The translations under genes were made by a program, and so were the position numbers. Under the pieces are notes generated by a model that saw only the letters and a list, made by a program, of their open reading frames with translations, ran no database searches and was not told where the DNA came from. From a virus (lineage: Duplodnaviria; Heunggongvirae; Uroviricota; Caudoviricetes): a DNA stretch of 16,956 nucleotides. Numbering within the stretch: the first letter of the stretch is position 1; every line of letters begins with the position of its first letter. Below, piece by piece: positions 1-14,271 of this stretch. The DNA lies in IMG/VR virus record IMGVR_UViG_2740892218_000013, positions 1 through 16,956 of that record; one strand, written 5' to 3'.

Positions 1-252
1 TTGTTGGGCTTGTTTAATCCAGTAACTGCGGGGCTTTAAGGCGAGTTTTCTAATCTTAAGTTTATCTTTCTGTTTCTGCTCCTCTCGTCGTCGTTTCTTC
101 TCTGCTGCTTTTTCCGCTTTTTTTCGCTGTTTACTTTGTAGTTCGAGTGCTAACTGAGTTCCGTGTTCCGGGCAGCACCACCACTGATTTGAGAATGCCG
201 GGTGAAACCATTCCTTGCATATTTTGCATTTCCTTCGCGCTGGTTTAGCCAT
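1..252 (-). CDS. ninG: NinG (Rap) recombination protein, N-terminal 84 codons; 3' end lies beyond the window
   Basis: Minus-strand frame from ATG at 250-252 reads [41 protein letters not shown]..., matching the lambda NinG N-terminus as I recall it; open to position 1. Confidence 0.8.
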
Positions 253-316
253 CGTCTTCTTCCTCGTACATTGAGCTATTCGGATCGCTCATCAGTTCTG
301 CGCAGTTATGGTCTGC
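245..316 (-). pseudogene. ninF: ninF 3' fragment (C-terminal ~20 codons), separated from its 5' part by the HNH gene
   Basis: Minus-strand frame ends ...[19 protein letters not shown] then TAA at 245-247, matching the recalled lambda NinF C-terminus. The frame stays open upstream to an ATG at 413-415 (57 codons) but that upstream part has no NinF similarity and overlaps the HNH ORF. Confidence 0.5.
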
Positions 317-812
317 CATGGTTTTCATGAAAACCCAGTTCTTTTTCTGCCCTCTTCCTTTCTGCAATAGCGTCAATGATGCTAGCAAATATTCCAAGAT
401 ATTTGGTGCGCCCATCTACGCATATATTCGCAATCCACTTACATCTCTCTTTATTGAAATATACTCCAGTCACTCCTGACGAATTGGTTATTTTTCTCTT
501 TTGGTTCTGTGCATTCTGTTGGTGTGTAACCAACCGAAGATTAGATAGCCTATTATCTGACCTTACTCCATTTATATGATCAATTTTATACCCTAATGGA
601 ATCTCACCATTATTTATCATCCATATAACGTGGTGAGCATAAGTAATTACACCATCGATAGTTAACATCCTATAACCATCACTCCTAATGTAACCAGCAA
701 CACTGCCAACCTTAACATTATTAGAAGGAGACACTTTCCATCTAAGTACACCTAAAACATCATCATATGATAATTTATTTCTTAATTCGTCTATGTTGCT
801 TATATTTCTCAT
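306..812 (-). CDS. HNH-family homing endonuclease with AP2-like DNA-binding domain (168 aa)
   Basis: ORF track protein contains DHINGVRSDNRLSNLRLVTHQQN (HNH motif) and GVTGVYFNKERCKWIANICVDGRTKYLGIF (AP2-like). The 5' half is markedly AT-rich compared with flanking nin genes. GGTGGAA precedes the ATG. Confidence 0.8.
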   Translation of the reverse strand: MRNISNIDELRNKLSYDDVLGVLRWKVSPSNNVKVGSVAGYIRSDGYRMLTIDGVITYAHHVIWMINNGEIPLGYKIDHINGVRSDNRLSNLRLVTHQQNAQNQKRKITNSSGVTGVYFNKERCKWIANICVDGRTKYLGIFASIIDAIAERKRAEKELGFHENHGRP

Positions 813-834
813 TATGTTCCACCATATTTAAGCA

Positions 835-954
835 TTCATATATACAACGCTCACACACGTGAACTTCCAGCACATGCAGCTTCTGACCGCAGTTAGCGCA
901 CGTTAAAGCTCGCTCGACACTTCCTTGTTCGTAACTTCGATTTTGGTCAATCAC
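835..954 (-). pseudogene. ninF: ninF 5' fragment (N-terminal zinc-finger part), terminated prematurely just before the HNH gene
   Basis: Minus-strand frame from GTG at 952-954 (overlapping the ninE stop) reads ...SYEQGSVERALTCANCGQKLHVLEVHVCERCII then TGA at 835-837, matching the recalled lambda NinF N-terminal half. Confidence 0.5.
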
Positions 955-1133
955 CTTGTTTTCCTCGCACGTTCTCTAAGCCACCGGATATCCCACAGGT
1001 GAGCCGTGTAGTTGAAGGTTTTTACGTCAGATTCTTTTGGGATTGGCTTGCGTTTATTTCTGGAGCGTTTCGTTGGAAGGTATTTGCAGTTTTCGCAGAT
1101 GATGTCGGTGATACTTCGTCGCTGTCGTCTCAT
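951..1133 (-). CDS. ninE: NinE (60 aa)
   Basis: [23 protein letters not shown]... matches lambda NinE as recalled; start overlaps the ninB stop. Confidence 0.8.
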
Positions 1134-1540
1134 TCGTACCTCCTGTCGGTAAATCTGACACCCTGACCAATAGCCCAGGCTGTTGTGTACTCGATCAGAC
1201 TTGCCATACGCTTCACGCTCATCTGCGCGCTGCTTTCGCGAATGTTGACGTATTCGCCTTCAAGGCCGGGCAAAACATCAGCTTCCTGCTTTGTTGCCAC
1301 TGCATGACCGCTGATCAACAAAACCTTCCATTGTTCTGGTTTTAACCATTTATCGCGCCACTGAACTTGCCTAGCGATATCTGCGACCATCGCGTGAAAT
1401 TTTGCGTTCTGGTCAAGGTTGCGCTTGTAGTCAGTAATGCGGATGGTGACTGGCTTGTCTTTATCGAGTGGTGTTGCGAGGATGGCATTTATTGCAGCTT
1501 GCTGTTGTTGCTTAGTTCGGAGGAAGATTGTTTGCTTCAT
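1130..1540 (-). CDS. ninB: NinB recombination protein
   Basis: NinB-like sequence (…[27 protein letters not shown]…). I place the start at ATG 1538-1540 (MKQTIFL, GAGGT 4 nt upstream) rather than the track's TTG at 1558. Confidence 0.8.
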
Positions 1541-1547
1541 TGTCACC

Positions 1548-1754
1548 TCAACTAACAAAACGCCACGCCATTTTTGCTACAGCAACAGGCGCAACACCGA
1601 TAATCACCCACAGGAGAATGCTACCGAAAAGCACACCCACCAGGTCTTTACCTTCGCCTACCAACCGGACAAAACTGCTGGCAACAACAATGAACGTCGC
1701 CACCATCCACATAGCACCGAGAATCCTCAATGCAGAGAAAATTAACTCAGCCAC
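1548..1754 (-). CDS. Small hydrophobic (two-TM) membrane protein, 68 aa, GTG start
   Basis: Strong SD GGGGGAGGG 5-6 nt upstream of GTG; highly hydrophobic translation; sits between a terminator and ninB. Function unknown. Confidence 0.45.
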   Translation of the reverse strand: MAELIFSALRILGAMWMVATFIVVASSFVRLVGEGKDLVGVLFGSILLWVIIGVAPVAVAKMAWRFVS

Positions 1755-1770
1755 GATTCACCCTCCCCCA

Positions 1771-1801
1771 AATAAAAAGGCCTGCGATTACCAGCAGGCC
1801 T
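1771..1801 (-). terminator. Rho-independent terminator (tR2-like) in the nin region
   Basis: Stem AGGCCTGC (1778-1785) / GCAGGCCT (1794-1801) with 8-nt loop; on the minus strand followed by TTTTATTT. Confidence 0.5.
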
Positions 1802-1826
1802 GTTATTAGCTCAGTGATGTAGATGG

Positions 1827-2096
1827 TCATTGCTTCATATCCCCTTCCATTTCATCAATGTCAACGTCATCAGGAAGATGGGAACAATACGCTGCTATAC
1901 CATGATGATTTATCTCATACCCTTTGAACGTTACCATCTGGCGCGTAATCTCAACTTCGTTCAGGAATCCGCCATCGCATAACTGCCTGGCTATTTTCGA
2001 TTTGGTCTGGATTATTGGTAGTGCCTGTTCTTTCAAAGCGTATGATATTTGTGCATCCCATGCCTTTTCGAGAATGGCTAATTGTTTTTTATTCAT
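1827..2096 (-). CDS. Hypothetical protein, 89 aa, translationally coupled to the helicase gene
   Basis: ORF start overlaps the helicase stop by 4 bp; ren/ninA-equivalent position; no motif recognised. Confidence 0.5.
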
Positions 2097-3469
2097 ACGT
2101 CAGCCCCTTGTGCATATCGTCTGCCACGCGCAGCAGGCGCATTTGATGCTGTGCAAATCTGTCTGGCTTCATCCTGGTCACATGCAACAAAGTGTCCGTT
2201 GCAGAACCGCTGGTAAACCGTACCAAGCGAGCCAAAACGGTTTTTCGTCACAATGATTTCAGCAAATGGTGCGGCGCTACTGTTCTCGTCATATACCGCT
2301 TCCCGATAGAGCATGATGATTGAGTCTGCGTCCTGTTCAATGCTTCCTGAATCACGCAAATCTGCGTTTGTCGGGCGTTTGTTTGGTCGCTTCTCAACAT
2401 CGCGCGAAAGCTGACTCAGGGAGATAACCGGTGTTTTCAGGTCTTTCGCCATCGCCTTCAGGCTTCCGGAGATGTGAGCAATTGCGAGGTCGTTGCGGTC
2501 TGCTTTCGGCTTCTCAATCAGGCCAAGATAATCCGCCATGATGAGTGACAGGTTTGGATTTTCCTGTTTGTGTCGTTCTGCGATTGAGCGTATTTCTTCG
2601 ACCGATAACCGCGAGGCATCGACTACCCACACATCCAAATCTGCAAGCTGACTCATGCCGTTAGCAACACGCGCCCAGCCTTCGTCATCCATCGATGCAG
2701 GATTTCGCAGTACGCTAACCGACATCCTCCCGGCGTTGGCAATGCTTCGCTCTGCAATCTGCAATGCGCTCATTTCCATTGAGAAAATCAATACCCCGCG
2801 CCGGACGTCAGAACCAGGAATAACGCGGCTTGCAACGCCTTCGGCAATCTTCAGCGCCAGTTCGGTTTTCCCCATACCAGGACGAGCAGCGATTATCACA
2901 AGGTCTTCTGCGTTCATCCCTCCGGTGATGGCATCAAGTTCTTCGATTCCGGTCTTCAGGGTATCTGACTCTTCTCCGTTCCTCAGACGCCTGTCAAGCG
3001 TGTCAGTGTAGTCAGTGATGATTTCCCCTAACCGTACAGGTTTAACCTCGTCACGGGGCTTTCTGATGGCTGAGAGACGTTTTACAAGTTCATCCATCGC
3101 CTGACTCGATGCGTCGATGGTTCCGCTCTGAATTGGTTCACGCATTTCATCCATGATTTCCAGCACCAGACGGCGGTGATAGTTATCCGCGACCATTCCG
3201 GCATATCCCTTCAGGTTTGCGGCACTCGGGCAGTTTTTGCTGGTCATCAGGATTGACGTGAAATGCTCCTCTCCGCACTCCTCGGCAACCATCAGCGCGT
3301 CGATTAGGTTTCTGTTTCGCGCCTGCTTGCGGATAACCTCGAAGGCCTTCCGGTAGAGCGGAATTGAAAACGCTTCCGGCTCCAGCGTTGCAAGAACGTC
3401 ACTGGCGGTTGGAGTTAATCCACCAATCAGCAGGCCGCCGATAACGCTCGCTTCGATATCCTGTCTCAT
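2093..3469 (-). CDS. Replicative DNA helicase, DnaB family (P22 gene 12 type), 458 aa
   Basis: Walker [13 protein letters not shown] and DnaB-like C-terminal domain; occupies the lambda P position, so replication uses its own helicase rather than a P-type loader. ATGA overlap with the O gene. Confidence 0.9.
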
Positions 3470-4296
3470 GCAATCCCCCTGTCTGCAAACTTCCCTTCCC
3501 GTACTCCCGTTAACGAATCTTCCCTCAGCAGGTAATCAAAATCTGCCGTCCAGCCCGTGTCGTTGTCTCCGAAGTAAAACGGCTTGGCCTGATGCACAAA
3601 CGCCCTGACATACGCTCTGAAACCGTCCACGTTTGGCGTTTTCAATTGCGGAATGATTTTCTTCAGGCGGCGTTTGCGTTTCTCGTTGACCGCAACAGCA
3701 TGTGGAAGTCTGTCACCGACTTCGGTGTTGTAGGCGTTCAGGAAGGATTCGTAGTCGATTCGTTCTGCCTTGCGACGTTCAGGTTTAACCTGCCCATCGC
3801 CGCCCCCATTAGGGGGTAAGGGGGTATTTGTATTTATTGTCTTTTGTATATTGTCTTTTGTGTTTGACTGATTCGGTAAATTGCTTTTTACCGATTTGGT
3901 GAAGGTTTGTTTTACCGAATTGGTAAATGTTTTACCGAATCCGTTAACTTTCGTTTTCCACTCGGAAATGTTTGTATTCATACCAACTTGACGCCCCACC
4001 TGAATGAGAACTCCCATTCTGATAAGCTCGTTTTTGGCGGTAGAGCATTTGGTTGGTGCCATGCCAGTGAGTTCAGCGAACTGTTCGTTTCCGATCCAAT
4101 CTATTTTTTTGTTGTAACCGTATGTCTTGCGCCACACAGCCATAACAATCAGTAACTGATGTAGAGTAAGCCCGGAAAGCATGGCGGCTTCTAACAGTGT
4201 GTTTGCAGTCCGAGTGTAGCCATCTTCGAGTTCTGCCACGCGATGCTCCACGACCTCCAGTTGAGGCCTGTAATCAGCTAACTTAACGACGCCCAT
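3466..4296 (-). CDS. Replication initiator, lambda O-like, 276 aa
   Basis: N-terminal region resembles lambda O (DDGY.R....LLEA...; WRKTYGYNK); the gene contains the ori iteron array. Confidence 0.85.
3830..3950. repeat. Replication origin inside the O gene: about four ~20-bp iterons plus adjacent AT-rich tract
   Basis: Repeats ACCGATTTGGTGAA / ACCGAATTGGTAAA / ACCGAATCCGTTAA plus inverted copy ATTCGGTAAATTG at 3871-3950; ATTGTCTTTTGT occurs twice in the AT-rich tract 3830-3866. Order matches lambda ori relative to O transcription. Confidence 0.6.
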
Positions 4297-4444
4297 GTTT
4301 CACTCCTGCTTTGGCTAGTCTGTAAACACCAACAAGGCGCTCTGCGAACGCCCTGTTATTTGCTGCGGCTACCACTAATCCCTCAGGTGAATCAGGGTGT
4401 CGAATCTCTTCTTTTTCCTGGTATTTCTTACGACGTTTTGTCAT
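4283..4444 (-). CDS. Small basic protein, 53 aa, between cII and O
   Basis: Not in the ORF track (under 60 aa). ATG at 4442-4444 with AGGAG 5 nt upstream; translation [53 protein letters not shown]; 3' end overlaps the O start by 14 bp. Confidence 0.4.
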   Translation of the reverse strand: MTKRRKKYQEKEEIRHPDSPEGLVVAAANNRAFAERLVGVYRLAKAGVKHGRR

Positions 4445-4476
4445 AATTACTCCTGTGGATTGATCCAGTAATTACC

Positions 4477-4773
4477 TCAGAACTCCATCTGGATTTGTTC
4501 AGAACGCTCGGTTGCCGCCGGGCGTTTTTTATTGGTTAGTCCATCAAGCGCATACTTAAAAGCCCTGCTAATCGGACTGATGTCTGATGCCATTCCAAAA
4601 GCACACAGAACCGAAGCAATAAATCTCCAGTCCGTTCTGCTTATCTTCGATTCATGACAGCCAATCATCTTTGCCAGACCGCGCTGGGTAAGCGTTGACA
4701 GATTGATGAGTAAATCTGTTTCTGCGCGATCAACGTCGCGCTGTGATAGTTTGCTGTAACTTGTTTGTTCCAT
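4477..4773 (-). CDS. cII: Transcriptional activator CII
   Basis: C-terminus ...LTNKKRPAATERSEQIQMEF matches lambda CII; position between cro and O. Confidence 0.9.
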   Translation of the reverse strand: MEQTSYSKLSQRDVDRAETDLLINLSTLTQRGLAKMIGCHESKISRTDWRFIASVLCAFGMASDISPISRAFKYALDGLTNKKRPAATERSEQIQMEF

Positions 4774-4838
4774 TTCTTACTATTTCCATAGGTAAATAAT
4801 CACTAATACCCATCTTTCGATGAGTGCTTAATTAGTTA

Positions 4839-4873
4839 CCGCGTTGTCGGCGGTGCAGATTGATAAAGAGCGG
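4839..4873 (-). promoter_or_regulatory. nutR: boxA plus P22-type boxB hairpin
   Basis: Minus strand reads CGCTCTTTAT (boxA) then ACCGCCGACAACGCGGT (5-bp stem, GACAA-type loop), just downstream of cro. Confidence 0.6.
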
Positions 4874-4882
4874 ATCCGCTTA

Positions 4883-5098
4883 TTAAGCGGCTTTGTGTTC
4901 CGGCGGGAACACGTCATCAAGACTGACTTTTGCGCCTAACTTGTTTAGGCACGCAACAAGAGCACGGCATGTTTTAAGGTCTGGGAAGCGACGACCAGAT
5001 TCCCAATGTCCGATAGCTCCCTGTGTGCATCCAACTGCCTTAGCAAGTGTTGTTTGAGAGATATTCAGTGACTCTCGATATTTTCGTAGGTTGCTCAT
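4883..5098 (-). CDS. cro: Cro-type repressor, 71 aa (HTH)
   Basis: HTH ISQTTLAKAVGCTQGAIGHWESG; ATG at 5096-5098 preceded by GGAGGG. The track's TTG at 5125 lies inside the pR -10 hexamer and is rejected. Confidence 0.8.
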   Translation of the reverse strand: MSNLRKYRESLNISQTTLAKAVGCTQGAIGHWESGRRFPDLKTCRALVACLNKLGAKVSLDDVFPPEHKAA

Positions 5099-5208
5099 AT
5101 GCCCTCCATAGTAACCATGAAGCAATAATACGATATGTACTTTTGAAATGCAAATAAAAATACATCTTGTGCATGGATGGTTTTAGTACAGAGCGTAATA
5201 ATAAGGAT
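5099..5208. promoter_or_regulatory. oR region with divergent pR and pRM
   Basis: pR on the minus strand: -35 TTGCAT (5148-5153), 17-bp spacer, -10 TATTAT (5125-5130). Inverted-repeat operator candidates ATGTACTTT / AAAATACAT also occur in the oL region. Confidence 0.7.
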
Positions 5209-5868
5209 ATGAAAATGAAATGGTATGAACTGGCTAGATCCAGAATGAAAGAGCTCGGCATAACTCAAGAGAAGTTAGCTGAAGAGCTTGGTATGACGCA
5301 GGGTGGAATTGGTCACTGGTTGCGCGGATCTCGTCATCCATCTCTTGACGAGATTGGTGTGGTGTTTAAATACCTTGGTATTGATAACGTCTCATTCAAC
5401 CACGACGGTACATTTTCACCTGTTGGCGAATACTCATCTGCCCCCGTTAAAAAACAATATGAGTACCCTGTTTTTTCTCATGTTCAGGCCGGGATGTTCT
5501 CGCCTGAGCTTAGAACCTTTACCAAAGGTGATGCGGAGAGATGGGTAAGCACAACCAAAAAAGCCAGTGATTGTGCATTCTGGCTTGAAGTTGAAGGTAA
5601 TTCCATGACCGCACCAACAGGCTACAAGCCAAGCTTTCCTGACGGGATGTTAATTCTGGTTGACCCTGAGCAGGCTGTCGAGCCAGGTGATTTCTGCATA
5701 GCCAGACTTGGGGGTGATGAGTTTACCTTCAAGAAACTGATCAGGGATAGCGGTCAGGTGTTCCTACAACCACTAAACCCGCAATATCCAATGATCCCAT
5801 GCAATGATAGCTGTTCCGTAGTAGGGAAAGTTATCGCCAGCCAGTGGCCTGAAGAGACATTTAGTTAA
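5209..5868 (+). CDS. cI: CI repressor: heterologous N-terminal HTH domain fused to a lambda-type C-terminal autocleavage domain
   Basis: C-terminal ~130 aa nearly identical to lambda CI as recalled (VQAGMF cleavage site, GNSM serine, FKKL lysine); N-terminal domain differs. Start could be ATG 5209 or 5215 (AAGGA upstream). Confidence 0.9.
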
Positions 5869-5899
5869 CAGCCTCACCACTCTAAAACACACAACAATA

Positions 5900-5929
5900 A
5901 CCCGACCTTAGCGTCGGGTTTTCTTTTTC
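5900..5929 (+). terminator. Rho-independent terminator downstream of cI
   Basis: Stem CCCGAC (5901-5906) / GTCGGG (5913-5918) followed by TTTTCTTTTT. Confidence 0.6.
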
Positions 5930-5993
5930 CAAAATATAAATCAATAAAATACAAAGTGTTATAAAAAACTAACCGCATTTAGAACATTTTGTA

Positions 5994-6022
5994 TTGACTC
6001 AATAAAGTACACATCGTACTAT
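5994..6022 (+). promoter_or_regulatory. pL promoter with overlapping oL operators
   Basis: -35 TTGACT (5994-5999), exact 17-bp spacer, -10 TACTAT (6017-6022); flanked by TACAAAGTGTT / AACATTTTGTA inverted repeats. Confidence 0.65.
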
Positions 6023-6067
6023 TTAGCCATCAGCAGGAAGCTGGAAGCCAAACGGAACAGATTGGCA

Positions 6068-6102
6068 GGCTCTTTAACTTCGATGGGGCGCTGACAAAGC
6101 GC
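6068..6102 (+). promoter_or_regulatory. nutL: boxA-like plus P22-type boxB hairpin
   Basis: GGCTCTTTAA (6068-6077) then GCGCTGACAAAGCGC (6088-6102), the P22 boxB-left sequence as I recall it, upstream of N. Confidence 0.7.
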
Positions 6103-6221
6103 AAATAGATACCAAACGAGATGGGTTTGGCGGTGATGTGAATTGCAGCTGCAACGACAGCAACCAGAAGATCAGCACCTGGCGCATCACCACCAAAGCC
6201 ATTTCACATGAGGAAAACATC

Positions 6222-6530
6222 ATGACGGTAATCGTGTACGGAAAATCAACATTTGCAGGAAATGCCAAAACTCGCCGTCATGAGCGGCGCAGAAAGCTGG
6301 CTATCGAGCGTGATTCCATCTGCAACATCATCGATTCGATCTTCGGCATAGACAGTGAGGAAGCTGTTCAGGAAGAACCGAGAAAGCGTTTAAGTCTTTC
6401 TGAAAAAGCAGCATCACTCGGCAATATTCGTAACCAAAATACCGACGAATGCAGTGGAAGTATTTGCCTGCCAAACGTAGCCATTTACGCGGCAGGCTAC
6501 CGGAAATCAAAACAACTGACAGCGAGGTAA
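6222..6530 (+). CDS. N: Antitermination protein N, P22 gene 24 type, ~102 aa
   Basis: Arginine-rich motif GNAKTRRHERRRKLAIERD near the N-terminus (the P22 N boxB-binding peptide as recalled). ATG at 6222 with GAGGA upstream, chosen over the track's start at 6138. Confidence 0.85.
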   Translation: MTVIVYGKSTFAGNAKTRRHERRRKLAIERDSICNIIDSIFGIDSEEAVQEEPRKRLSLSEKAASLGNIRNQNTDECSGSICLPNVAIYAAGYRKSKQLTAR

Positions 6531-6532
6531 TT

Positions 6533-6985
6533 ATGGATTTAAGTAAATTAGAAAGCTCTTTAGAAGCATCAGTAAAAAATTTTATATCAGTAATTGATGA
6601 AAAAACTGAAGATATTAAGAAAGCAAATATTGTCGAACTTGTAAAAACAAGAGCCAGTACATTTGATCATCTTCCTGATGATGTCCGGTCAGCGGCAATT
6701 CACGTATATGTAACGGCACTAAGCAATATTGAACCCCCAATTGATGAAGAATCAAGAGATATTCAGAAAAAACGGTTCGAGATGTTAGCCAGCAACATTA
6801 TCGCTGGTTTCACACGGCTCTTAACAAAAAAGCCTGCCAGTGAGGCTGTTCGCCAGCAGGCTCAGGTAATGATTAATCAGGCAGAAACTATTTCACGTGA
6901 GCGAAAAGCATTTGATAAATCGGTTTCTGAACTTCCAACACCTCAACCGCAGCCGCTGAACCTTCCTTCTCAACAAACTGAATAA
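6533..6985 (+). CDS. Hypothetical protein, 150 aa, AT-rich, translationally coupled to N
   Basis: ATG at 6533 three nt after the N stop, with GAGGT SD; first ~200 bp strongly AT-rich; no motif recognised; 3' end overlaps a convergent ORF. Confidence 0.5.
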   Translation: MDLSKLESSLEASVKNFISVIDEKTEDIKKANIVELVKTRASTFDHLPDDVRSAAIHVYVTALSNIEPPIDEESRDIQKKRFEMLASNIIAGFTRLLTKKPASEAVRQQAQVMINQAETISRERKAFDKSVSELPTPQPQPLNLPSQQTE

Positions 6986-7142
6986 CTTCATCAAGATTCT
7001 TTTTTGCATGTGATGATTGCTCAGGTGGCATAGCAGAAACAATCGAAATGATTGCTTGCTGGAGCGCGAGGTTTTCAGTGCTCAGTTTTGAAACTCTGTT
7101 GTTTAAATCCTCAATGATTTTAACAAGAGATACATCTGACAT
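6888..7142 (-). CDS. Hypothetical protein, 84 aa, antisense to the pL operon
   Basis: ATG at 7140-7142 with AAGGAG 5 nt upstream; predicted helical (LNNRVSKLSTENLALQQAI); overlaps the 3' end of the 6533-6985 ORF by 98 bp. Confidence 0.4.
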   Translation of the reverse strand: MSDVSLVKIIEDLNNRVSKLSTENLALQQAIISIVSAMPPEQSSHAKKNLDEVIQFVEKEGSAAAVEVLEVQKPIYQMLFAHVK

Positions 7143-7153
7143 GTGAACTCCTT

Positions 7154-7203
7154 CTTTTGACTGTGGAAACAACAGTCTACCCATTTCCTTTGACTGTGGA
7201 AAG
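7154..7203. repeat. Two direct copies of a 16-bp motif, 34 bp apart, in the intergenic region
   Basis: CTTTTGACTGTGGAAA at 7154-7169 and CCTTTGACTGTGGAAA at 7188-7203 (15 of 16 identical), between the minus-strand ORF start and the 7282 gene. Confidence 0.6.
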
Positions 7204-7281
7204 TGAAGGAACCACCGAGCCTGATGTGGTTAAAAGACAGGCACAATCTTTACAGCCGCAATCCACTATTTAAGGTGATAT

Positions 7282-7731
7282 ATGGAAGAACAAGCAAACA
7301 AGATTCTCGTAGAACTACTGCAAAAAGCCAGTAATGGAATAGACGCGGCTGTTTCATTTAGCCAGGCACAGATTCCTGATGTTGTTCATCAGTTGCTGCT
7401 ATGGAATATGGTTGACAGTCTGATTAAAACATTAATAGCCATTCTAACAATCCCACTGGTTTTCTGGTTTATGAAGAAGCAGTGCCAAAGAGTTGAGATA
7501 GGTAAAATCGGTAATGAAGGATATTCATGGGAGAAGGGAAATCCCAAATACAGGCCGACAATGGTTTGGGATAGCAAAGGTGATATTAATCTTCTTATCA
7601 TGCCATTGGTTGGAGTTTTGACTCTGTGGGGGATTTTTATTATTGGTGCAGTAACCAATATGACTTGGTTAAAAATTTGGCTGGCTCCAAAGCTTTACCT
7701 TATCGAATATGCAGCATCATTGGTTAAGTAA
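7282..7731 (+). CDS. Multi-pass inner-membrane protein, 149 aa; candidate superinfection-exclusion protein
   Basis: AAGGTGA SD; two or three hydrophobic helices; followed by a terminator; lies where lambda has sieB. No sequence identity recognised. Confidence 0.55.
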   Translation: MEEQANKILVELLQKASNGIDAAVSFSQAQIPDVVHQLLLWNMVDSLIKTLIAILTIPLVFWFMKKQCQRVEIGKIGNEGYSWEKGNPKYRPTMVWDSKGDINLLIMPLVGVLTLWGIFIIGAVTNMTWLKIWLAPKLYLIEYAASLVK

Positions 7732-7736
7732 TTTCA

Positions 7737-7764
7737 GGCCGCATAGTCGGCCTTTATTTTTGGC
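7737..7764 (+). terminator. Rho-independent terminator
   Basis: Stem AGGCCG (7737-7742) / CGGCCT (7749-7754), loop CATAGT, then TTATTTTTGG. Confidence 0.55.
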
Positions 7765-7880
7765 ATAAACAACAGAATAAATACTGCACTGTGTATTCAT
7801 TCCGACGAGTGAATACACGGAGCAATGTCGCTCGTAACTAAACAGGAGCCGACTTGTTCTGATTATTGGAAATCTTCTTT

Positions 7881-7907
7881 GCCCTCCAGTGTGAGGGCGA
7901 TTTTTTT
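7881..7907 (+). terminator. Rho-independent terminator immediately upstream of the 7920 gene's SD
   Basis: Stem GCCCTC (7881-7886) / GAGGGC (7893-7898), loop CAGTGT, then GATTTTTTT; GGAGGA SD follows directly. Confidence 0.55.
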
Positions 7908-7919
7908 GATGGAGGATAT

Positions 7920-8888
7920 ATGAGTGAAGTAACAGACTTAGTTGTTATTGAAAAAGCAAATGCAATGACTGTATTTCAGTCTGCAGACCAGATTGAAGAA
8001 ATCCTTCAAAAGGTTGAACGTGAAGTTATGTCCTTTGTGCCTGATATCACAACGGCAAAGGGCAGAAAGGAGATCGCTTCTCTGGCGTATAAAGTTGCGC
8101 AGACGAAAACATATCTCGATGGTCTTGGCAAAGACCTTGTTGCTGAACTGAAGGAAATTCCAAAGCTAATTGATGCCAACCGCAAGACAGTGCGCGATCG
8201 CCTTGATGAACTGAAAGCCAAGGCGCGCCAGCCTCTTACTGATTATGAGGAAGAACAGGCGCGGATTAAAGCCGAAGAAGAAGCTAAGGCAGCAGCTGAA
8301 GCTCTCGCAAAGCAAATTGAGTCTGACCATGAAATAGCTATTTTGATGGATCGCGAATTTGACCGCCAAAGAGAAGAGGCAAGACTCAAAGCGGAGCAGG
8401 AAAAGCGAGAGCATGAAGAACGATTAAAAAGAGAAGCTGAAGAGAAAGCCAGAGCAGAAGCCGAAGCAAAGGCAAAAGCCGAAATTGAAGCAGCAGCAAG
8501 GCGAGAAGCAGAAGCTAAGGCCGCAGCGGAACGTGCAGAGCGTGAACGCATTGAAGCCGAGCAACGAGCACAGCGCGAAGCAAAAGAGGCAGCAGAACGA
8601 GCTGAAAGAGAAAAGCAGGCAGCAATTGAAGCAGAACGCAGAAAAGCACAGGAGGAGGCTGAACGAATCCGTCGCGAGGCTGAAGCAAAAGAGCAAGCCA
8701 GAATAGCAGAAGAAAAAAGAATCAAGGACGAAGAAGATCGTAGAGCAAAGGATAAAGCTCACCGGAAAGAAGTAAATAACAAAATACTTGCTGACCTTAT
8801 CAAGGTTGGCGCATCAGAAGATGTTGCTAAAAATATCATAACAGCCATCGTAAAAGGCGAAGTATTCGCAACAAAAATAACCTACTAA
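7920..8888 (+). CDS. Coiled-coil protein, 322 aa, with long E/A/K/R-rich central repeat region
   Basis: ATG at 7920 after GGAGGA. Globular N-terminal ~110 aa, ~170 aa of EAKA/REAE-type repeats, short conserved C-terminal tail. Function unknown; sits just upstream of cIII. Confidence 0.65.
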   Translation: MSEVTDLVVIEKANAMTVFQSADQIEEILQKVEREVMSFVPDITTAKGRKEIASLAYKVAQTKTYLDGLGKDLVAELKEIPKLIDANRKTVRDRLDELKAKARQPLTDYEEEQARIKAEEEAKAAAEALAKQIESDHEIAILMDREFDRQREEARLKAEQEKREHEERLKREAEEKARAEAEAKAKAEIEAAARREAEAKAAAERAERERIEAEQRAQREAKEAAERAEREKQAAIEAERRKAQEEAERIRREAEAKEQARIAEEKRIKDEEDRRAKDKAHRKEVNNKILADLIKVGASEDVAKNIITAIVKGEVFATKITY

Positions 8889-8912
8889 TAAAACCAACAT
8901 AAGGAACCACCC

Positions 8913-9059
8913 ATGATTTACGCAATCGCGGGAGGCGCTCGCATGGGTGCCTTCCAATTAAATGAATCTTTACTTGAACGAATCACCCGTAAATTACGTG
9001 ACGGATGGAAACGACTCATCGACGTACTTAATCAGCCAGGATTTCCAAAAAATGGATAA
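8913..9059 (+). CDS. cIII: CIII (protects CII from FtsH), 48 aa
   Basis: Not in the ORF track. AAGGAA SD 6 nt upstream; translation MIYAIAGGARMGAFQLNESLLERITRKLRDGWKRLIDVLNQPGFPKNG matches the lambda CIII core (ESLLERITRKLRDGWKRLIDILNQPG) as recalled. Confidence 0.85.
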   Translation: MIYAIAGGARMGAFQLNESLLERITRKLRDGWKRLIDVLNQPGFPKNG

Positions 9060-9165
9060 AACACTTATGGCTATCCAGACTAAATTCACTATCGCCACTT
9101 TTATTGGCGATGAAAAGATGTTTCGTGAGGCCGTCGAGGCCTACAGGAAATGGAGGTCAAAATGA
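9052..9165 (+). CDS. kil: Kil-like host-killing protein, 37 aa
   Basis: Internal Met of the track ORF 8962-9165; MDKTLMAIQTKFTIATFIGDEKMFREAVEAYRKWRSK resembles the lambda Kil N-terminus as recalled; start overlaps the cIII stop. Confidence 0.6.
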   Translation: MDKTLMAIQTKFTIATFIGDEKMFREAVEAYRKWRSK

Positions 9166-9350
9166 TTCCGGTAGAACTGGCGAAAACTCCAGAGTTAAGT
9201 CGATTAAAAAGAGAATATCACATTGCTGAGGCTCGTTACTGGCGTAAAGCGGGAGATAAATCAAAGAAACAACTTTGTTTATGGCAGGCACAAAGAGAGC
9301 GCATGAATGAGCGAGAGTTTCTTTCCTCCCCATCCGAATTACCATTCTGA
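9162..9350 (+). CDS. Hypothetical protein, 62 aa
   Basis: ATG at 9162 with GGAGG 5 nt upstream; start overlaps the kil stop; in the lambda gam position but not Gam-like. Confidence 0.45.
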   Translation: MIPVELAKTPELSRLKREYHIAEARYWRKAGDKSKKQLCLWQAQRERMNEREFLSSPSELPF

Positions 9351-9358
9351 GGCAAATT

Positions 9359-10039
9359 ATGGGAACTGCAACATTAATACTCGGTGAGTCTGGCACCGGA
9401 AAATCAACCAGCATGAGAAATATCAATCCAGAGGAAGCAATACTTATAAAACCAATAGGCAAGCCGCTACCATTTAAATCAAAAGACTGGCTGGCATGGG
9501 ATGCCAGAGCAAAAAAAGGAACCGTAGTTACCACTGACAAATGGGATGTAATAGTTGCCGTAATTAAGCGTGCTCACGAATACGGGAAAAGAATCGTTAT
9601 TGTTGATGACTTCCAGTATGTGATGAGCAATGAGTTTATGCGCCGCTCAGAAGAAAAATCGTTTGATAAATTCACTGAGATAGGCCGTCACGCATGGGAG
9701 GTCATTAAGGCTGCACAAGATGCACCTGATGACCTGAGAGTCTATTTTCTTGCGCACACCGAAGAAACCCCTATGGGGCGCGTGAAAATGAAAACTATCG
9801 GCAAAATGCTGGACGAGAAGATCACTGTTGAAGGCATGTTTACTATAGTTCTTCGCACCCTTACCCGTGATGACCAGTTCTTTTTCACCACGAAAAACAA
9901 CGGTGCAGACACTGTTAAATCCCCAATGGGAATGTTTGATTCCAATGAGATTGATAACGATCTCTCTTTCGTCGATGCCACTGTTTGTGATTACTACGGC
10001 ATCAATAATGTTCATCAAATTAAGGAAAACGCCGCATGA
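9359..10039 (+). CDS. Sak4-type RecA-like ATPase (phage single-strand annealing recombinase family), 226 aa
   Basis: Walker A GESGTGKST near the N-terminus, Walker B IVIVDD, ~225 aa core-only size; lies where lambda has bet/exo. Confidence 0.7.
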   Translation: MGTATLILGESGTGKSTSMRNINPEEAILIKPIGKPLPFKSKDWLAWDARAKKGTVVTTDKWDVIVAVIKRAHEYGKRIVIVDDFQYVMSNEFMRRSEEKSFDKFTEIGRHAWEVIKAAQDAPDDLRVYFLAHTEETPMGRVKMKTIGKMLDEKITVEGMFTIVLRTLTRDDQFFFTTKNNGADTVKSPMGMFDSNEIDNDLSFVDATVCDYYGINNVHQIKENAA

Positions 10040-10623
10040 GCAACGTAATTTTTACTTATAACGAAGAAGCAGCACTGACCGCAGGGCAAGGTGGTTTTAT
10101 TAACGAAACTGGCGCTCATATCATTACCATTACTGAAGCAGAACTAAAGCAATCAGAAAAAGGCGCAAAATTTATTGAGTTTTCTGGCGAATCCGACGAC
10201 GGACGTAAAATACAATATCTTAGCGTTTGTGTTCAGAAAAATGACGGAACGGAAAACAAATTTGGCGCAAATGTCGTTCACGCCATGATGGGGTGTGCCG
10301 GTATTGGACAATTAACGCAACATATGGTTTCCGCCAGTAAATTTGTTGCACCTGAATTTCATGGAAAGAAAATCGGGTTAGTGCTCCAGAAAGTATTAAC
10401 CACAAACAAAAAGACTGGCGCAGACAGCTACCAGATGGAAATACGCATCCCGTTTATTGCACAAACAGGTCAAACCCTTAAAGAAAAGGCGGAAGGCAAG
10501 CAACCAGAAACTATCGCCAACATGGTTGCCAGCCTCAAAGATAAAGACAATCGCTCTAAAAACGTAAGCCAGAATCATGCAGATGATTATGGTTACAGCC
10601 AGAACGATTACCCTCCTTTCTGA
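10036..10623 (+). CDS. Putative ssDNA-binding protein partner of Sak4, 195 aa, with SSB-like acidic tail ending in Phe
   Basis: Translationally coupled to the Sak4-like gene (ATGA overlap). C-terminus ...HADDYGYSQNDYPPF resembles the SSB and T7 gp2.5 acidic tail with terminal aromatic residue. OB fold not verifiable by eye. Confidence 0.4.
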   Translation: MSNVIFTYNEEAALTAGQGGFINETGAHIITITEAELKQSEKGAKFIEFSGESDDGRKIQYLSVCVQKNDGTENKFGANVVHAMMGCAGIGQLTQHMVSASKFVAPEFHGKKIGLVLQKVLTTNKKTGADSYQMEIRIPFIAQTGQTLKEKAEGKQPETIANMVASLKDKDNRSKNVSQNHADDYGYSQNDYPPF

Positions 10624-10646
10624 TTACTGAAAATAAGGCTCCCATT

Positions 10647-10943
10647 ATGCCAGCGCCTCTGTATGGTGCGGATGACCCGCGCAACTGCTCCGGTAGCTCC
10701 AAGGCGGAGGTGCTGGAAAATATCAAAAACAATTTCGACGCGTTTCTTGCTCTGACGCCAGAAACAAAAGCAGAACGGATGTACCGACGCGATATACAAC
10801 TCGCGCTAAAACAGGAGAAGGACCGAACAAACGAAACAGCAATGAGACCGTTGCGAAAAGCGACAATAGACAAATTCCCTGAATATATCGACCCGCGCCT
10901 GCGTAATTACCGCTCACGCTATGGCGCTATCAGTAATGACTGA
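10647..10943 (+). CDS. Hypothetical protein, 98 aa
   Basis: ORF in operon orientation with an upstream purine-rich tract; no motif recognised. Confidence 0.45.
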
Positions 10944-10953
10944 GGAATTTACC

Positions 10954-11118
10954 ATGAGAGGACTTGCATACAATCCCGGCATTCTTCCGGCAGAAATGAT
11001 TATTCGCCAACGCGTAAAGCCAATGCCATCGAGAGAGGAATTGCTTAAGAGAAATTCTTTTCCATCAGTGAATCAAAACAAATATCTGAATGCGATGTGG
11101 CGGAGTGGGAAGAAATGA
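10954..11118 (+). CDS. Hypothetical small protein, 54 aa
   Basis: Internal ATG of track ORF 10921-11118, preceded by GAGGAA at 6-nt spacing. Confidence 0.3.
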
Positions 11119-11786
11119 AACAAATGTCACTAATTGAGATGGATGGTTTTCTGAAAGGTAAATGCATCCCAAGTGATTTAAAGGTTAACGAAACAAACGC
11201 TGAATATCTTGTCCGTAAGTTCGGTGAACTTGAATCAAAACTAGAAACGGCGTTGCGGGAGTGTCGTTCTGCTGGAATCACGATTGATAACCTTGAGGCC
11301 AAGTGCGCGGCGCTGGCAGCGGAGAATGCAAGACTGAAGGCCGGGGCTATGTATTTCTCATATGGCTCTGAATTTAGTTTCGAGTGTCACAAAACTGCTG
11401 AGGAGGCTATCGCTGCTGCTGAGGCTGCAATTGACGACTATAGAGGCGATGCTTGCGATGGATGGAGCGAAGAGGTCGAAAGCATTTGCTGGGGGGTAAT
11501 TATTCAGCAGGCAACCAAGGTCGGTGAACGCAAGAAGAGGAAATGCGACAGAGTATCACCATGGATTGAAAGAGTTTGTGATTATGAGCTTCGACCTAAT
11601 GTCGAAACCCCAGCCACCGATGCTTTCCTGGCTGAAGTACGAGCGCAGGGCGTGGAGATGTTTGCACAGAAATGTAACTCAAAATCCGAACAGTCATTTG
11701 CATCTGATATACGCGATAACTGGAAACTACTCGGTGAACATGCCACTGACTTTGCCGCAGAGCTTCGCAAAGGAGGCAACCAGTGA
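11097..11786 (+). CDS. Coiled-coil protein, possibly Ead/Ea22-like; start uncertain (11097 or 11115)
   Basis: Central coiled-coil ([39 protein letters not shown]); position between the recombination module and xis. Confidence 0.5.
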
Positions 11787-12052
11787 GTGAGTCAAAATGC
11801 CAAATTAATGGCAACAAGATAGAACCGTGCGCGGCTTTGGCAAAATCTCTCGAATATGGAAATCCAACATTCAAGAGTAAAGGCATATTTATCCCGGAAC
11901 GTGTGAACATAAACACCGGCGAGTCAGGCATAGATATTGCTCAAATTCACTCTGGGCAATATATCGGTCGTGGTGTTGCAATGTGTTTTTGCCCGTTCTG
12001 TGGTGAAAGTCTGAAAACGTGGGAAGCGGAGGCAACCAGTGAGCGAGATTGA
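11783..12052 (+). CDS. Hypothetical protein, 89 aa, GTG start
   Basis: Starts with GGAGGCAACCA-GTG-AGT-GAG overlapping the upstream stop; contains a CxxC pair (CPFCGE). Confidence 0.45.
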   Translation: MSESKCQINGNKIEPCAALAKSLEYGNPTFKSKGIFIPERVNINTGESGIDIAQIHSGQYIGRGVAMCFCPFCGESLKTWEAEATSERD

Positions 12053-12620
12053 CTATCAGGCACTGCGTGCTAAGGCAGAAAAAGCAACGTGTGGTGTGTG
12101 GTCGCTCGAATATGGAGAGGAGAGATTTGATGCTGGTGATGCGCTAATTCATCGTGAAGTTGTTGGATATCTTCCCATTTGCAGAATTGAAGGAGCGCAT
12201 CCTGAAAGCGGTTTCGATGAAGATTTCCAAATGGAACAGCAGGCCAATGCTGAATTCATCGCCGCAGCCAATCCCGCTACCGTCTTGGCGCTGCTGGATG
12301 AACGGGAAAGAAACCAGCAATACATAAAACGCCGTGACCAGGAGAACGAGGATATTGCGCTAACGGTAGGGAAGCTGCGCGTTGAGCTTGAAGCAGCAAA
12401 ATCAAAACTCAACGAGCAGCGTGAATATTACGAGGGAGTAATCGCGGATGGAAGTAAGCGCATAGCAGAACTGGAGGAGCGGGAAATACTGCTCCCGGAA
12501 CGTAGCAGTATGCTTCATCGAACAGATTTTCACGAGGATTACCAAACGGTAATGGCATACAAAGTTTCTGAGGTCATCGCTGCAATCCGCGCCGCTGGCA
12601 TTCGCATCAAAGGAGAGTGA
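12039..12620 (+). CDS. Ead/Ea22-like family protein, 193 aa, GTG start
   Basis: Motif EFIAAANPATVLALLDE followed by coiled-coil, typical of Ea22-like prophage proteins as recalled; same SD-GTG-MSE start cassette as the previous gene. Confidence 0.55.
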   Translation: MSEIDYQALRAKAEKATCGVWSLEYGEERFDAGDALIHREVVGYLPICRIEGAHPESGFDEDFQMEQQANAEFIAAANPATVLALLDERERNQQYIKRRDQENEDIALTVGKLRVELEAAKSKLNEQREYYEGVIADGSKRIAELEEREILLPERSSMLHRTDFHEDYQTVMAYKVSEVIAAIRAAGIRIKGE

Positions 12621-12621
12621 G

Positions 12622-12819
12622 ATGGACAAAAACACACCTGCTTACTGGAGTCTGTCACTTGATACCGAATGTCCAAAATGTGGTCACAATTTCGATCTGC
12701 TTTGTGATCCAGATTTCTGGGAGTTTTCTGGAGCTAAACAGGCATGTGAAGAAATAAAAGGTTACGAAACATGCTGTCCAGAATGTAACCATGAATTTAA
12801 AACAGATTTCGTGTATTGA
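12622..12819 (+). CDS. Small zinc-ribbon protein, 65 aa
   Basis: Two Cys pairs (CPKCGH ... CCPECNH); tightly packed after the upstream gene. Confidence 0.5.
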   Translation: MDKNTPAYWSLSLDTECPKCGHNFDLLCDPDFWEFSGAKQACEEIKGYETCCPECNHEFKTDFVY

Positions 12820-12829
12820 GGCATAACAA

Positions 12830-13282
12830 ATGACCACTATTACCAGAGAACAAGCTCTGAAAATTATTGAGGCAGCCGATGAGGTTATTAGTGCGCTGGC
12901 CGGAACTAATGAGGATGTTCACCCTGGTAGCGATAACATGCTACGCCTGTGGGATGACCTGAATGACCGTTACGCGCCGCCGGAAGTTGTGCGTGAGCTG
13001 GCACGGATTGCACTGGCATCACTGGAAGCAAAACCAATAGGTGCTTTCCACATTGCAGAACAGCAGGTCGATGGCACAAGTGACTACATCAAGGATGGGG
13101 AGTGGCCTATTGATAATGGGACAATTGAAGTATACGCCGCCCCTCCAGCGCCAGTAGTACCGGAAGAAAAACCAATGCCTAACCCTCTTAGCATGTACAC
13201 AGTTGATGCTGTTGCAGCTATTGCAGAGGTGAGAGGCTGGAACGCCTGCCGTGCAGCCATGCTTAAGGGAGATAAATCATGA
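12830..13282 (+). CDS. Hypothetical protein, 150 aa
   Basis: ORF in operon orientation; stop overlaps the next start (ATGA). Confidence 0.5.
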   Translation: MTTITREQALKIIEAADEVISALAGTNEDVHPGSDNMLRLWDDLNDRYAPPEVVRELARIALASLEAKPIGAFHIAEQQVDGTSDYIKDGEWPIDNGTIEVYAAPPAPVVPEEKPMPNPLSMYTVDAVAAIAEVRGWNACRAAMLKGDKS

Positions 13283-13629
13283 TTAATCGAACCAAACTGG
13301 AGCACATCCTCGAGTATGCCAGGCAGCAGAGGCGCTTTGGCCAGCTTTGTAAAATTCTGCCAGGAGATATGGTTGAAATCGTGGAGATTGCCATGCGTAA
13401 GACTGGCAACTCTCCGGTAAGTCCGGGTGGTTGGATAAGCTGTAGTGAGCGAATGCCCGCTCAAGATGATTGGATTTTAATTTATTCAAAGCACGGTGAG
13501 TATATGGCAGGACAGGTACAAGAGGAATACGTGGAGTTGAGCGACGGCACTTTATCGTGGTTAGGGAACGCCTTGTACTGGATGCTGCTACCAGAACCGC
13601 CGCAGGGAGTGAATGATGAATTGGCCTGA
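13279..13629 (+). CDS. DUF551-like prophage protein, 116 aa
   Basis: Motif WISCSERMP...DDWILIY resembles the DUF551 signature (W.S..ERLP) as recalled. Confidence 0.5.
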   Translation: MINRTKLEHILEYARQQRRFGQLCKILPGDMVEIVEIAMRKTGNSPVSPGGWISCSERMPAQDDWILIYSKHGEYMAGQVQEEYVELSDGTLSWLGNALYWMLLPEPPQGVNDELA

Positions 13630-13699
13630 AGCATTCACCGCTGTAGGAGTTGCAATCGCGGTGGCATTTATTCTGTATTCGCTTTTCCGCTGGGGATAA
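13616..13699 (+). CDS. Possible small single-TM peptide, 27 aa
   Basis: Not in the ORF track. ATG 13616 (alternative 13613) after GGGAG; translation MNWPEAFTAVGVAIAVAFILYSLFRWG; overlaps the upstream gene's end and stops 4 nt before the next start. Confidence 0.3.
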   Translation: MNWPEAFTAVGVAIAVAFILYSLFRWG

Positions 13700-13703
13700 A
13701 GGA

Positions 13704-13946
13704 ATGTTCGCTCTGATTCAACGTGGTCAGATATACACCGATAGCGCCGGCTACCCGATAAAAATTCTTCGCTGCATAAACAACACTGTGTTGTACAGAA
13801 GAATGGATGGGCGAACACAGTCGGTAAAAATAAACGATTTTAATGAACTGTTTGAACGGATCGATCACCAGGAATACCGACAAATTCTGGCTGAAACAGA
13901 GCAGGAGAACCATCTGAAAAAATTACGCGCCATGCAAAGGAGATAA
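13704..13946 (+). CDS. Hypothetical protein, 80 aa
   Basis: Internal ATG of track ORF 13650-13946 (MFALIQRGQIY...), placed directly after the small peptide stop. Confidence 0.45.
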   Translation: MFALIQRGQIYTDSAGYPIKILRCINNTVLYRRMDGRTQSVKINDFNELFERIDHQEYRQILAETEQENHLKKLRAMQRR

Positions 13947-14007
13947 ACCGGTAAAGGTGTTCGCGATAAAGGTGAATATCGGCAATGAATAACAATCCTC
14001 GCACTCG

Positions 14008-14032
14008 CGGGGATTTATTTTATCTGAACTCG
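14008..14032 (+). terminator. Possible Rho-independent terminator
   Basis: Stem ACTCGC (14008-14013) / GCGAGT (14018-14023), loop TACG, then TTTGTTTTAT. Confidence 0.4.
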
Positions 14033-14064
14033 CTACGGCGAGTTTTGTTTTATGGAGATGATAA

Positions 14065-14232
14065 ATGCACTTCCGAGTCACAGGTGAATGGAATGGAGAA
14101 CCATTCAACAGAGTTATCGAAGCGGAGAACATCAACGACTGCTACGACCACTGGATGATATGGGCACAGATAGCACATGCAGACGTAACCAATATTCGAA
14201 TTGAAGAACTGAAAGAACACCAAGCCGCCTGA
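14065..14232 (+). CDS. Hypothetical small protein, 55 aa
   Basis: Not in the ORF track. ATG at 14065 with GGAGATGA upstream; translation MHFRVTGEWNGEPFNRVIEAENINDCYDHWMIWAQIAHADVTNIRIEELKEHQAA; stop lies in the loop of a terminator hairpin. Confidence 0.45.
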   Translation: MHFRVTGEWNGEPFNRVIEAENINDCYDHWMIWAQIAHADVTNIRIEELKEHQAA

Positions 14233-14247: not shown

Positions 14248-14271
14248 GCGTGTAATTGCGGAGACTTTGCG

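Follow-up and report, generated by a model that had tools for sequence, protein, structure and literature searches.

A small antisense gene at the sieB position of a lambdoid prophage, its overlapping convergent partner and a candidate role in superinfection exclusion

Among the known exclusion loci, the sieB slot of phages lambda and P22 is one of the oldest. We know of no established mode of action for SieB. When P22-like phages superinfect, the protein halts macromolecular synthesis in the middle of their lytic cycle, though not in that of P22 (PMC10461980), which is itself spared through the action of Esc and of the sas antisense RNA (PMC12197685, PMC7067206). Here we describe the corresponding region of a lambdoid prophage contained in IMG/VR record IMGVR_UViG_2740892218_000013, of which positions 1 to 16,956 were analyzed (the window). 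Three open reading frames (ORFs) lie between the N and cIII genes in this stretch: ORF1 (150 amino acids; 6533-6985, + strand), ORF2 (84 amino acids; 6888-7142, - strand) and ORF3 (149 amino acids; 7282-7731, + strand). The first-pass annotation of this DNA had presented them as a single unrecognized cassette and a candidate exclusion or defense system. ORF and terminator scans found the reading frames and terminators where they had been placed, and none of the three products matched a characterized family in Pfam, PHROGs, NCBIfam, PADLOC or the PDB. On balance, the account that we hold to be probable is that of a three-module mosaic in which ORF2 is a moron with a convergent partner gene, and to which an exclusion/antidote mechanism is provisionally attached.

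The early-left (pL) operon corresponds to the + strand of the window, as judged from the cro-like, cI-like repressor and N genes. ORF2 is antisense to this operon. It has its own Shine-Dalgarno (SD) sequence, AAGGAG, at 7153-7148 on the - strand, 5 nt before its ATG, and overlaps ORF1 by 98 bp (6888-6985), both features having been correctly noted at the outset. The presence of an antisense gene in the pL operon had been thought unusual; this view does not hold, for the sieB genes of lambda, P22 and the Rac prophage are antisense at exactly the same place. The lambda RefSeq record shows sieB (34482..35036, +) adjoining N and facing ral, both of which are complement-strand genes. P22, in its curated record, has sieB/esc (29758..30336, +) flanked by ral and gene 24, again two genes of the complement strand, and in Rac sieB faces kilR and ydaF. 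An antisense gene is therefore, from the organization of these records, the canonical arrangement at the ORF2 position, and ORF2 shares with the sieB genes both the slot, between N (24 in P22) and ral, and the orientation.

The resemblance extends to the expression signals. The ORF2 leader (7143-7208, - strand) aligns with the sieB leaders of P22, lambda and Rac. A candidate promoter can be recognized in it, consisting of a -35 element TTTCCA (7202-7197), a 17-nt spacer and a -10 element TAGACT (7179-7174), with a predicted start around 7167. Because its score, 8 of 12 consensus matches, falls below the threshold of the promoter scan, which did not report it, this assignment rests on homology to the mapped P22 PsieB. 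With the P22 sieB promoter (NC_002371, 29690-29720; RNA start at 29727), the ORF2 leader lines up in every column, the TAGACT of the window falling opposite a TAAACT at the end (29720) of the P22 promoter feature. The TAnnnT form of the -10 element is kept in all lineages. The leader further contains two direct repeats, TTTCCACAGTCAAA, at 7202-7189 and 7169-7156 of the - strand, that is, at approximately -35 and +1. Leaders of the ORF2 type carry the motif TTCCACAGTCAA, and sieB leaders the motif CCCCTACAG, at the same two positions. Since the repeats differ in sequence but keep their positions, they suggest a candidate binding site for a regulator, and autoregulation would be possible. The leader repeats were also seen in four related loci (L009, L012, L021 and L024; loci are referred to below by such numbers), and the sieB leaders carrying CCCCTACAG are those of lambda, P22 and Rac.

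Adjoining the leader is a conserved mosaic junction (7209-7281), 97% identical to lambda 34358-34430 and including the SD sequence and start codon that ORF3 has in common with lambda orf28. Within the junction, upstream of the ORF2/sieB promoter, a hairpin at 7219-7242 is common to lambda, P22 and Rac. Its stem reads GCCTG..CAGGC, or GCCGGG..CCCGGC in other lineages; pairing amounts to 90.5% in five sequences, with one covarying pair (U-A to G-C). A second stem, AACCAC/GTGGTT, overlaps this hairpin so that the two are mutually exclusive; its variants CCACG/CGTGG and CCCTC/GAGGG were identified by eye. The ORF2 and sieB leaders thus have four elements in common: the junction, the hairpin, a repeat at about -35 and about +1, and the TAnnnT -10 element.

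At its other end, ORF2 is followed by a predicted intrinsic terminator (6824-6863, - strand), which lies inside the coding sequence of the partner described below. It consists of a 34-nt hairpin (6863-6830; -19.0 kcal/mol by RNAfold) beginning 25 nt past the ORF2 stop codon and followed by the T-run TTTTTTG. Five other lineages (L019, L021, L024, L027 and L029) have an equivalent hairpin and T-run. A smaller hairpin (6847-6831) was rejected as the entire terminator; it is the inner part of the full structure, which is what the consensus scan had caught. Morons, in the sense of Juhala, Hendrix and colleagues in 2000, are autonomous promoter-gene-terminator units inserted into the operons of phages such as HK97 and HK022 (cf. 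PMC7067206). ORF2 resembles the lambdoid morons in having a promoter-like leader, an SD sequence, a single gene and a strong terminator, in being present or absent among otherwise similar prophages, in its orientation antisense to the lytic genes and in a GC content below the window average. It differs from them in being coupled to a convergent, overlapping gene of the host operon. Forming, as it does, a candidate promoter-gene-terminator unit, ORF2 is predicted to be a self-contained moron in the sieB slot and orientation, with a promoter assigned by homology; as its leader is of the P22 sieB type, transcription from the repressed prophage is expected.

Among 5,426 complete E. coli genomes, the ORF2-type leader was found in 12 and ORF2 in about 6; the leader does not always precede ORF2. 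The same leader stands before two other, unrelated small antisense genes, one encoding 60 amino acids (L007 and L017) and one encoding 54 (L035-L037). That one leader type appears to carry several unrelated cargo genes is a new recognition, and it suggests that the sieB slot is a conserved expression cassette (leader, promoter, terminator) serving at least four unrelated cargo genes. In these other loci, a second type of convergent pair is observed (L007, 1434-1971; L017, 3001-3469; L035-L037, 950-1492), in which a pL-direction protein of 97-99 amino acids, either the ORF1 core defined below or a weak relative of it, faces the 54- or 60-amino acid gene with an overlap of 0-14 nt. The 60- and 54-amino acid proteins show no detectable similarity to each other or to ORF2, and a homology between the two, which had been considered, is unsupported, BLASTP giving no alignment.

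The ORF2 product is predicted to be a soluble, acidic, helical protein with no transmembrane segment. All 21 distinct members of the family that were examined are intact and measure 79-87 amino acids, and word-indexed and exhaustive hidden Markov model searches recovered homologs only within this size range, down to about 30% identity. Pairwise dN/dS values lie between 0.05 and 0.25, with pS at 0.6-0.9 (synonymous sites near saturation) and pN at 0.1-0.2. These values clearly mark ORF2 as coding, far beyond a chance reading frame, and with the signals described above they bear out the initial proposal that ORF2 is a genuine gene equipped with expression signals of its own. Every member with a readable context is antisense to the early-left operon and near the repressor gene or N, in lambda-like, P22-like and Rac-like prophages. 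By the searches made, the ORF2 family itself is new; six RefSeq accessions were looked for in the literature, and no paper was found. The Prokaryotic Genome Annotation Pipeline (PGAP) misses ORF2 in E. coli 09-00049 (L001, 3965-4262) and in strains F5505-C1 and 203740 (L005/L006, 1955-2313) but annotates it in PEC41 (WP_096952992.1). In one locus (L008, 2086-3354; E. coli Z1323CEC0019), an IS3-family insertion sequence resembling IS1203 sits at the 5' end of ORF2. It has removed the first nine codons and cut the gene off from its native leader in a strain that is viable, and ORF2 is therefore dispensable for the L008 lysogen.

The 3' end of ORF2 is overlapped by a second small reading frame, here termed the partner, which runs in the pL direction. 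In the window this frame forms the C-terminal part of ORF1 (amino acids 97-150; 6821-6985, + strand); elsewhere it is a free gene of about 53-68 amino acids. None of the 21 distinct ORF2 lineages examined has this frame closed across the 3' end of ORF2; it overlaps the last 30 or so ORF2 codons and contains the ORF2 terminator. The partner stands free in 10 of the 21 lineages, with a length of 53-68 amino acids and a GAGG or GGAG SD sequence 5-9 nt before the ATG (in one of the ten, L021, SD and ATG are internal to a longer open frame). In the unfused lineages the distance between this ATG and the ORF2 stop codon is constant, while the upstream flanks are otherwise unrelated. In 10 lineages, the window included, the partner is fused to the ORF1 core, and in the remaining one to a different N-terminal domain (P0016), so that two independent in-frame fusions are represented. 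The coding character of the frame was assessed with BLOSUM62 scores, stop codons and codon positions over 22 codons lying outside the ORF2 overlap in ten divergent lineages. The partner frame scored a mean BLOSUM62 of 37.7 with no stops, against 1.7-19.9 and 8-28 stops for the five control frames, and conservation was lowest at the third codon position (0.45 versus 0.55 and 0.60). In addition, the pS of ORF2 is reduced where the partner overlaps it (0.41 versus 0.60). We consider it quite likely that the partner is translated in the unfused lineages. A convergent, overlapping partner with an embedded terminator is, as predicted here, a new arrangement.

Gene callers identify the partner in other assemblies (P0041-P0055), and the free form is left uncalled in L012, L018, L024, L025, L027, L029 and L031. 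Small overlapping genes at the ORF2 locus are systematically under-called. Annotation both misses and mis-models genes here: PGAP has the partner only as a chimeric tail and omits ORF2 altogether in 09-00049 and F5505-C1.

The first 96 residues of ORF1 (the core; 6533-6820, + strand) correspond to an acidic, helical early-left protein that directly follows the N stop codon in all of at least nine variants. ORF1 homologs, which are 99, 138 or 150 amino acids long, have residues 1-96 in common and differ in their C-termini. The core occurs as a free 99-amino acid protein beside the 60-amino acid antisense gene (L007, L017), variants ending at around residue 93-99; tentatively, the 97-amino acid protein found beside the 54-amino acid gene in L035 can be added, with 29% identity to the core (E value 1e-4). 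The dN/dS of the core, about 0.3-0.5 compared with 0.6-1.0 in control frames, indicates moderate purifying selection. The tail, in turn, recurs wherever ORF2 occurs, even without the core, and the GC content jumps from 35% to 44% at the point where the two meet. As the partner, which has no start of its own in the window, is fused in frame behind an unrelated 96-residue core, ORF1 appears to be a chimera and not the single gene module that it had been taken for. It is best read as a recombinant in which the pL-direction gene of one pair type has been joined to the partner of another. The translational coupling to N proposed for ORF1 is plausible: its ATG at 6533 lies 2 nt past the N stop codon (TAA, 6528-6530) and is preceded by a GAGG 5 nt upstream. 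The AT-richness noticed at the start of the block is real and local. The ORF1 core has 35.4% GC, compared with 46.0% for the window, 44% for the ORF1 tail, 40% for ORF2 and 39% for ORF3, and the AT-richness is confined to the first 290 bp or so.

The likeness to the SieB/Esc/sas system of P22, and to sieB of lambda and Rac, suggests how such a locus could work. The leaders share an architecture (hairpin, two direct repeats and TAnnnT), expression in the prophage is expected for ORF2, pL antisense RNA would cross the gene, and a second product is tied to the locus (PMC10461980, PMC12197685). It seems conceivable that ORF2 encodes a lysogen-expressed superinfection-exclusion or abortive-infection factor and the partner its cognate antidote made from pL, a proposal built on analogy that we advance tentatively, as somewhat short of an even chance. 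In the lysogen, ORF2 would be transcribed from its own promoter up to its own terminator, with pL and the partner silent. Upon induction, or upon infection by a phage with the same module, N-antiterminated transcription from pL would produce ORF1 with its partner domain. This transcription, running antisense through ORF2, its promoter and its leader, would shut ORF2 off in the way that sas RNA acts on sieB, and the partner (here the ORF1 tail) might neutralize the ORF2 protein already present, as Esc does with SieB. The carrier phage would thereby escape its own exclusion. Their tight physical overlap ensures that ORF2 and the partner are inherited together. A broader proposal, that the sieB expression cassette here holds a two-protein system of exclusion and immunity not described before, with a partner that is free or fused to different early proteins and a leader that marks a family of interchangeable cargoes (the 84-, 60- and 54-amino acid types and sieB), is one that we put forward as more doubtful still. 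ORF2 and its partner would then constitute a compact candidate effector-antidote pair of very small proteins; should their function not be exclusion, they would still illustrate coding on both strands, the terminator of one gene lying inside the gene on the other strand. The aba determinant, by which a phage carrying BstA escapes, is a DNA element and not a small protein. BstA/aba and HepS have in common with the ORF2 locus the concept of an abortive prophage defense that spares its own phage through an escape determinant on the same locus or phage, and show no homology to it (10.1101/2020.07.13.199331; PMC13043305).

A number of observations weigh against this interpretation. ORF2 shares position, orientation and a candidate promoter of its own in a conserved leader with the SieB family, and no homology: the ORF2 family gave an hhalign probability of 0.3% with lambda, P22 and Rac SieB and no Pfam hit at E≤1, and neither the partner nor the ORF1 core has any profile similarity to SieB. 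Annotated SieB proteins measure 162-192 amino acids, against 84 for ORF2, which is small, soluble and devoid of transmembrane segments, unlike most known exclusion proteins. Esc, moreover, is an internal translation product of sieB from the same strand, whereas the partner is a gene in its own right, encoded on the strand opposite to ORF2 and covering its 3' end and terminator, and the leader repeat is TTCCACAGTCAA instead of the CCCCTACAG of sieB. Searches of Pfam, PHROGs, NCBIfam, PADLOC and the PDB gave nothing significant for ORF2, the ORF1 core or the partner; in PADLOC-DB v2, which covers known and candidate anti-phage defenses, the best E value of ORF2 was 0.019 and no component was matched. 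Fold searches with ORF1 were likewise empty. AlphaFold2 modeled ORF2 as four helices (pLDDT 64.7) and ORF1 as a helical bundle (pLDDT 62.3), both with low confidence, and Foldseek comparison of these models to BFVD gave no hit with E≤0.001. The below-threshold score of the candidate promoter belongs here as well. As to the partner, an NG86 analysis of the ORF1 tail among close relatives did not separate its frame from the control frames, and the tail ends at residue 138 in five fused lineages. The outer stem of the terminator, AGCCTG/CAGGCT, supplies the codons for its invariant residues P6 and A15 (in K-P and Q-A dipeptides), so that part of the motif conservation may be confounded by RNA structure or by ORF2 coding. 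No similarity was found between the partner and Rac YdaF or a YdaG-like small protein.

The NG86, tail-length and terminator-stem observations would be accounted for if ORF2 were a lysogenic-conversion gene acting on the host, the partner frame being nonfunctional, preserved by the terminator and by ORF2 coding, and the ORF1 tail (ending at residues 138 to 150) an accidental read-through. Morons often encode host-directed functions, which also speaks in favor of this explanation. It is nonetheless improbable, given that SD and ATG keep a fixed distance in ten unfused lineages whose upstream flanks are unrelated, that the frame has no stops where controls have 8-28, that its third codon position is the least conserved, and that ORF2 pS drops in the overlap. 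A toxin-antitoxin-like pair or a lysis-lysogeny switch, in which a harmful or regulatory product is counteracted by the second one with no role in excluding other phages, would fit the tight linkage of two overlapping small genes and the reciprocal logic of their expression (prophage promoter versus pL), since convergent overlapping transcription would make the two mutually exclusive. Rac-type contexts indeed hold other toxin-antitoxin-like pairs, such as YdaS/YdaT, and RalR. We regard this as unlikely too. No similarity to any toxin-antitoxin family emerged from Pfam, NCBIfam or PADLOC, and type II systems are typified by family homology and a co-directional bicistronic operon, whereas ORF2 and the partner are convergent and overlap at their 3' ends; slot and leader, furthermore, are those of an exclusion gene. 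The viability of L008 with a disrupted ORF2 argues, weakly since pL is repressed, against ORF2 being an essential antitoxin. Finally, the ORF1 core could be the key early gene, with an anti-defense or host-takeover function like that of Ral, Gam or Ocr, and ORF2 a mere neighboring moron. The core is the first gene after N, is coupled through its SD sequence, is acidic and helical and occurs with three different neighbors, and the neighboring pL genes in relatives include ral, gam and anti-RecBCD. Against this, it has no homology to any anti-defense family and is under moderate purifying selection only, and we give the idea a low probability, although it is compatible with the mosaic explanation favored here.

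The distribution of the genes bears on the original proposal that the three ORFs are one recently acquired defense or exclusion cassette working as a unit. The same order, with all three genes adjacent, is found in the window, in E. coli 09-00049 (L001) and in L020, L040 and L041; the region is an accessory slot of lambdoid phages, and no function is known for any of the three proteins, all of which would suit a single cassette. However, ORF3 assorts independently of the other two. It is complete in 130 of the 5,426 complete E. coli genomes, while ORF1 plus ORF2 DNA is complete in five and partial in two more; ORF3 is thus about 20 times as common, usually without the others, and 09-00049 is the only one of these genomes to combine all three. 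Conversely, ORF3 adjoins ORF2 in only 5 of 15 fused-type loci and is absent there from the other 10. PEC41, L038 and L042 have the order N-ORF1/ORF2-cIII without ORF3, F5505-C1 and 203740 have a different 156-amino acid gene after ORF2, and L019 has a gene with an Nmad5 domain. In HF4s, ORF3 directly follows N, and in Sf6 its homolog gp34 follows ral. The modules are parted by conserved mosaic junctions common to other lambdoid phages, lambda and Sf6 among them, and the ORF3 family extends to virulent phages. The single-cassette proposal is very improbable and already largely refuted by this distribution. In the accessory region between N and cIII of this lambdoid prophage, the block forms a mosaic whose three modules are exchanged independently; the region is confirmed to be highly variable among related prophages. 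A defense or exclusion role remains plausible, by position and analogy, for ORF2 and its partner only. Searches by tblastn gave no match to ORF1 or ORF2 in 50,697 phage records and none to ORF2 in 72,556 plasmids. Pfam Nmad5-domain proteins of about 207-244 amino acids, whose genes run in the pL direction and begin immediately downstream of the ORF2 leader (L012/L013, 3023-3691; L019, 2235-2858; L032, 34-768), are recurrent occupants of the variable region in several unrelated prophages.

ORF3 belongs to phrog_3054 (E value 9.1e-64, residues 1-149 against profile positions 1-137 of 137), with homologs in 181 phage records that include virulent phi92-like and rV5-like phages and many Vibrio phages. 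It had been described as a multi-pass membrane protein; the membrane assignment stands, the passes being two Kyte-Doolittle transmembrane segments at residues of about 42-65 and 100-128. Sf6 gp34 is 50% identical to it and occupies the same place, downstream of a ral-type junction and upstream of the bsq4/tL2A boundary, while the window copy is of the subtype found in HF4s and Stx2 phages (96% identity). The scan detected no promoter-like site belonging to ORF3. It is predicted to be a phage membrane protein transcribed from pL and unrelated to the other two modules, and the occurrence of phrog_3054 in virulent phages makes it unlikely to be a lysogen-specific defense gene. A SieB-like nature of ORF3 was considered and rejected, there being no Pfam SieB hit, and neither ORF1 nor ORF3 had a hit in PADLOC-DB v2. 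A hairpin with a T-run (7736-7753, in a segment delimited as 7736-7761; + strand), detected by the terminator scan directly after ORF3, is conserved in Sf6 and HF4s. The segment 7725-7925 has about 96% identity to the spacer between Sf6 genes 34 and 33, which bears the annotation "bsq4 boundary sequence"; it contains a tL2A-like terminator (7879-7907, + strand; "terminator, homology to lambda tL2A" in the Sf6 annotation) just upstream of the next gene. The latter (7920-8888, alternative start 7866), located between ORF3 and cIII, is very A-rich on the + strand and encodes a highly charged coiled-coil protein of 322 amino acids, which is a member of phrog_1376 and a homolog of Sf6 gp33. It is labeled "antitoxin / phi80 Agt-like" in HF4s and "TolA" by PGAP; its best E value in PADLOC-DB v2 was 0.029, with no component matched.

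The location of the block between N and cIII was as first described. The N antiterminator gene (6222-6530, + strand; Pfam N_peptide, 6.4e-39; phrog_271, 1e-40) is its upstream neighbor, preceded by the cI-like repressor gene (5167-5868, + strand) and the cro-like gene (4883-5125, - strand), and a cIII-like gene (8913/8943-9059) and a kil-like gene are found downstream. Rfam searches gave no family in the window at the gathering threshold, and none at E≤1 within 6400-8000. Further down the pL operon (9359-10623) are genes for a 226-amino acid P-loop protein with a GESGTGKST motif and for a 195-amino acid protein. The counterparts of the P-loop protein in L020 and L031 have weak AAA_22/AAA_24 matches, and in L020 the pair is followed by an Anti-RecBCD_p2 gene, giving it the appearance of a recombination or anti-nuclease module.

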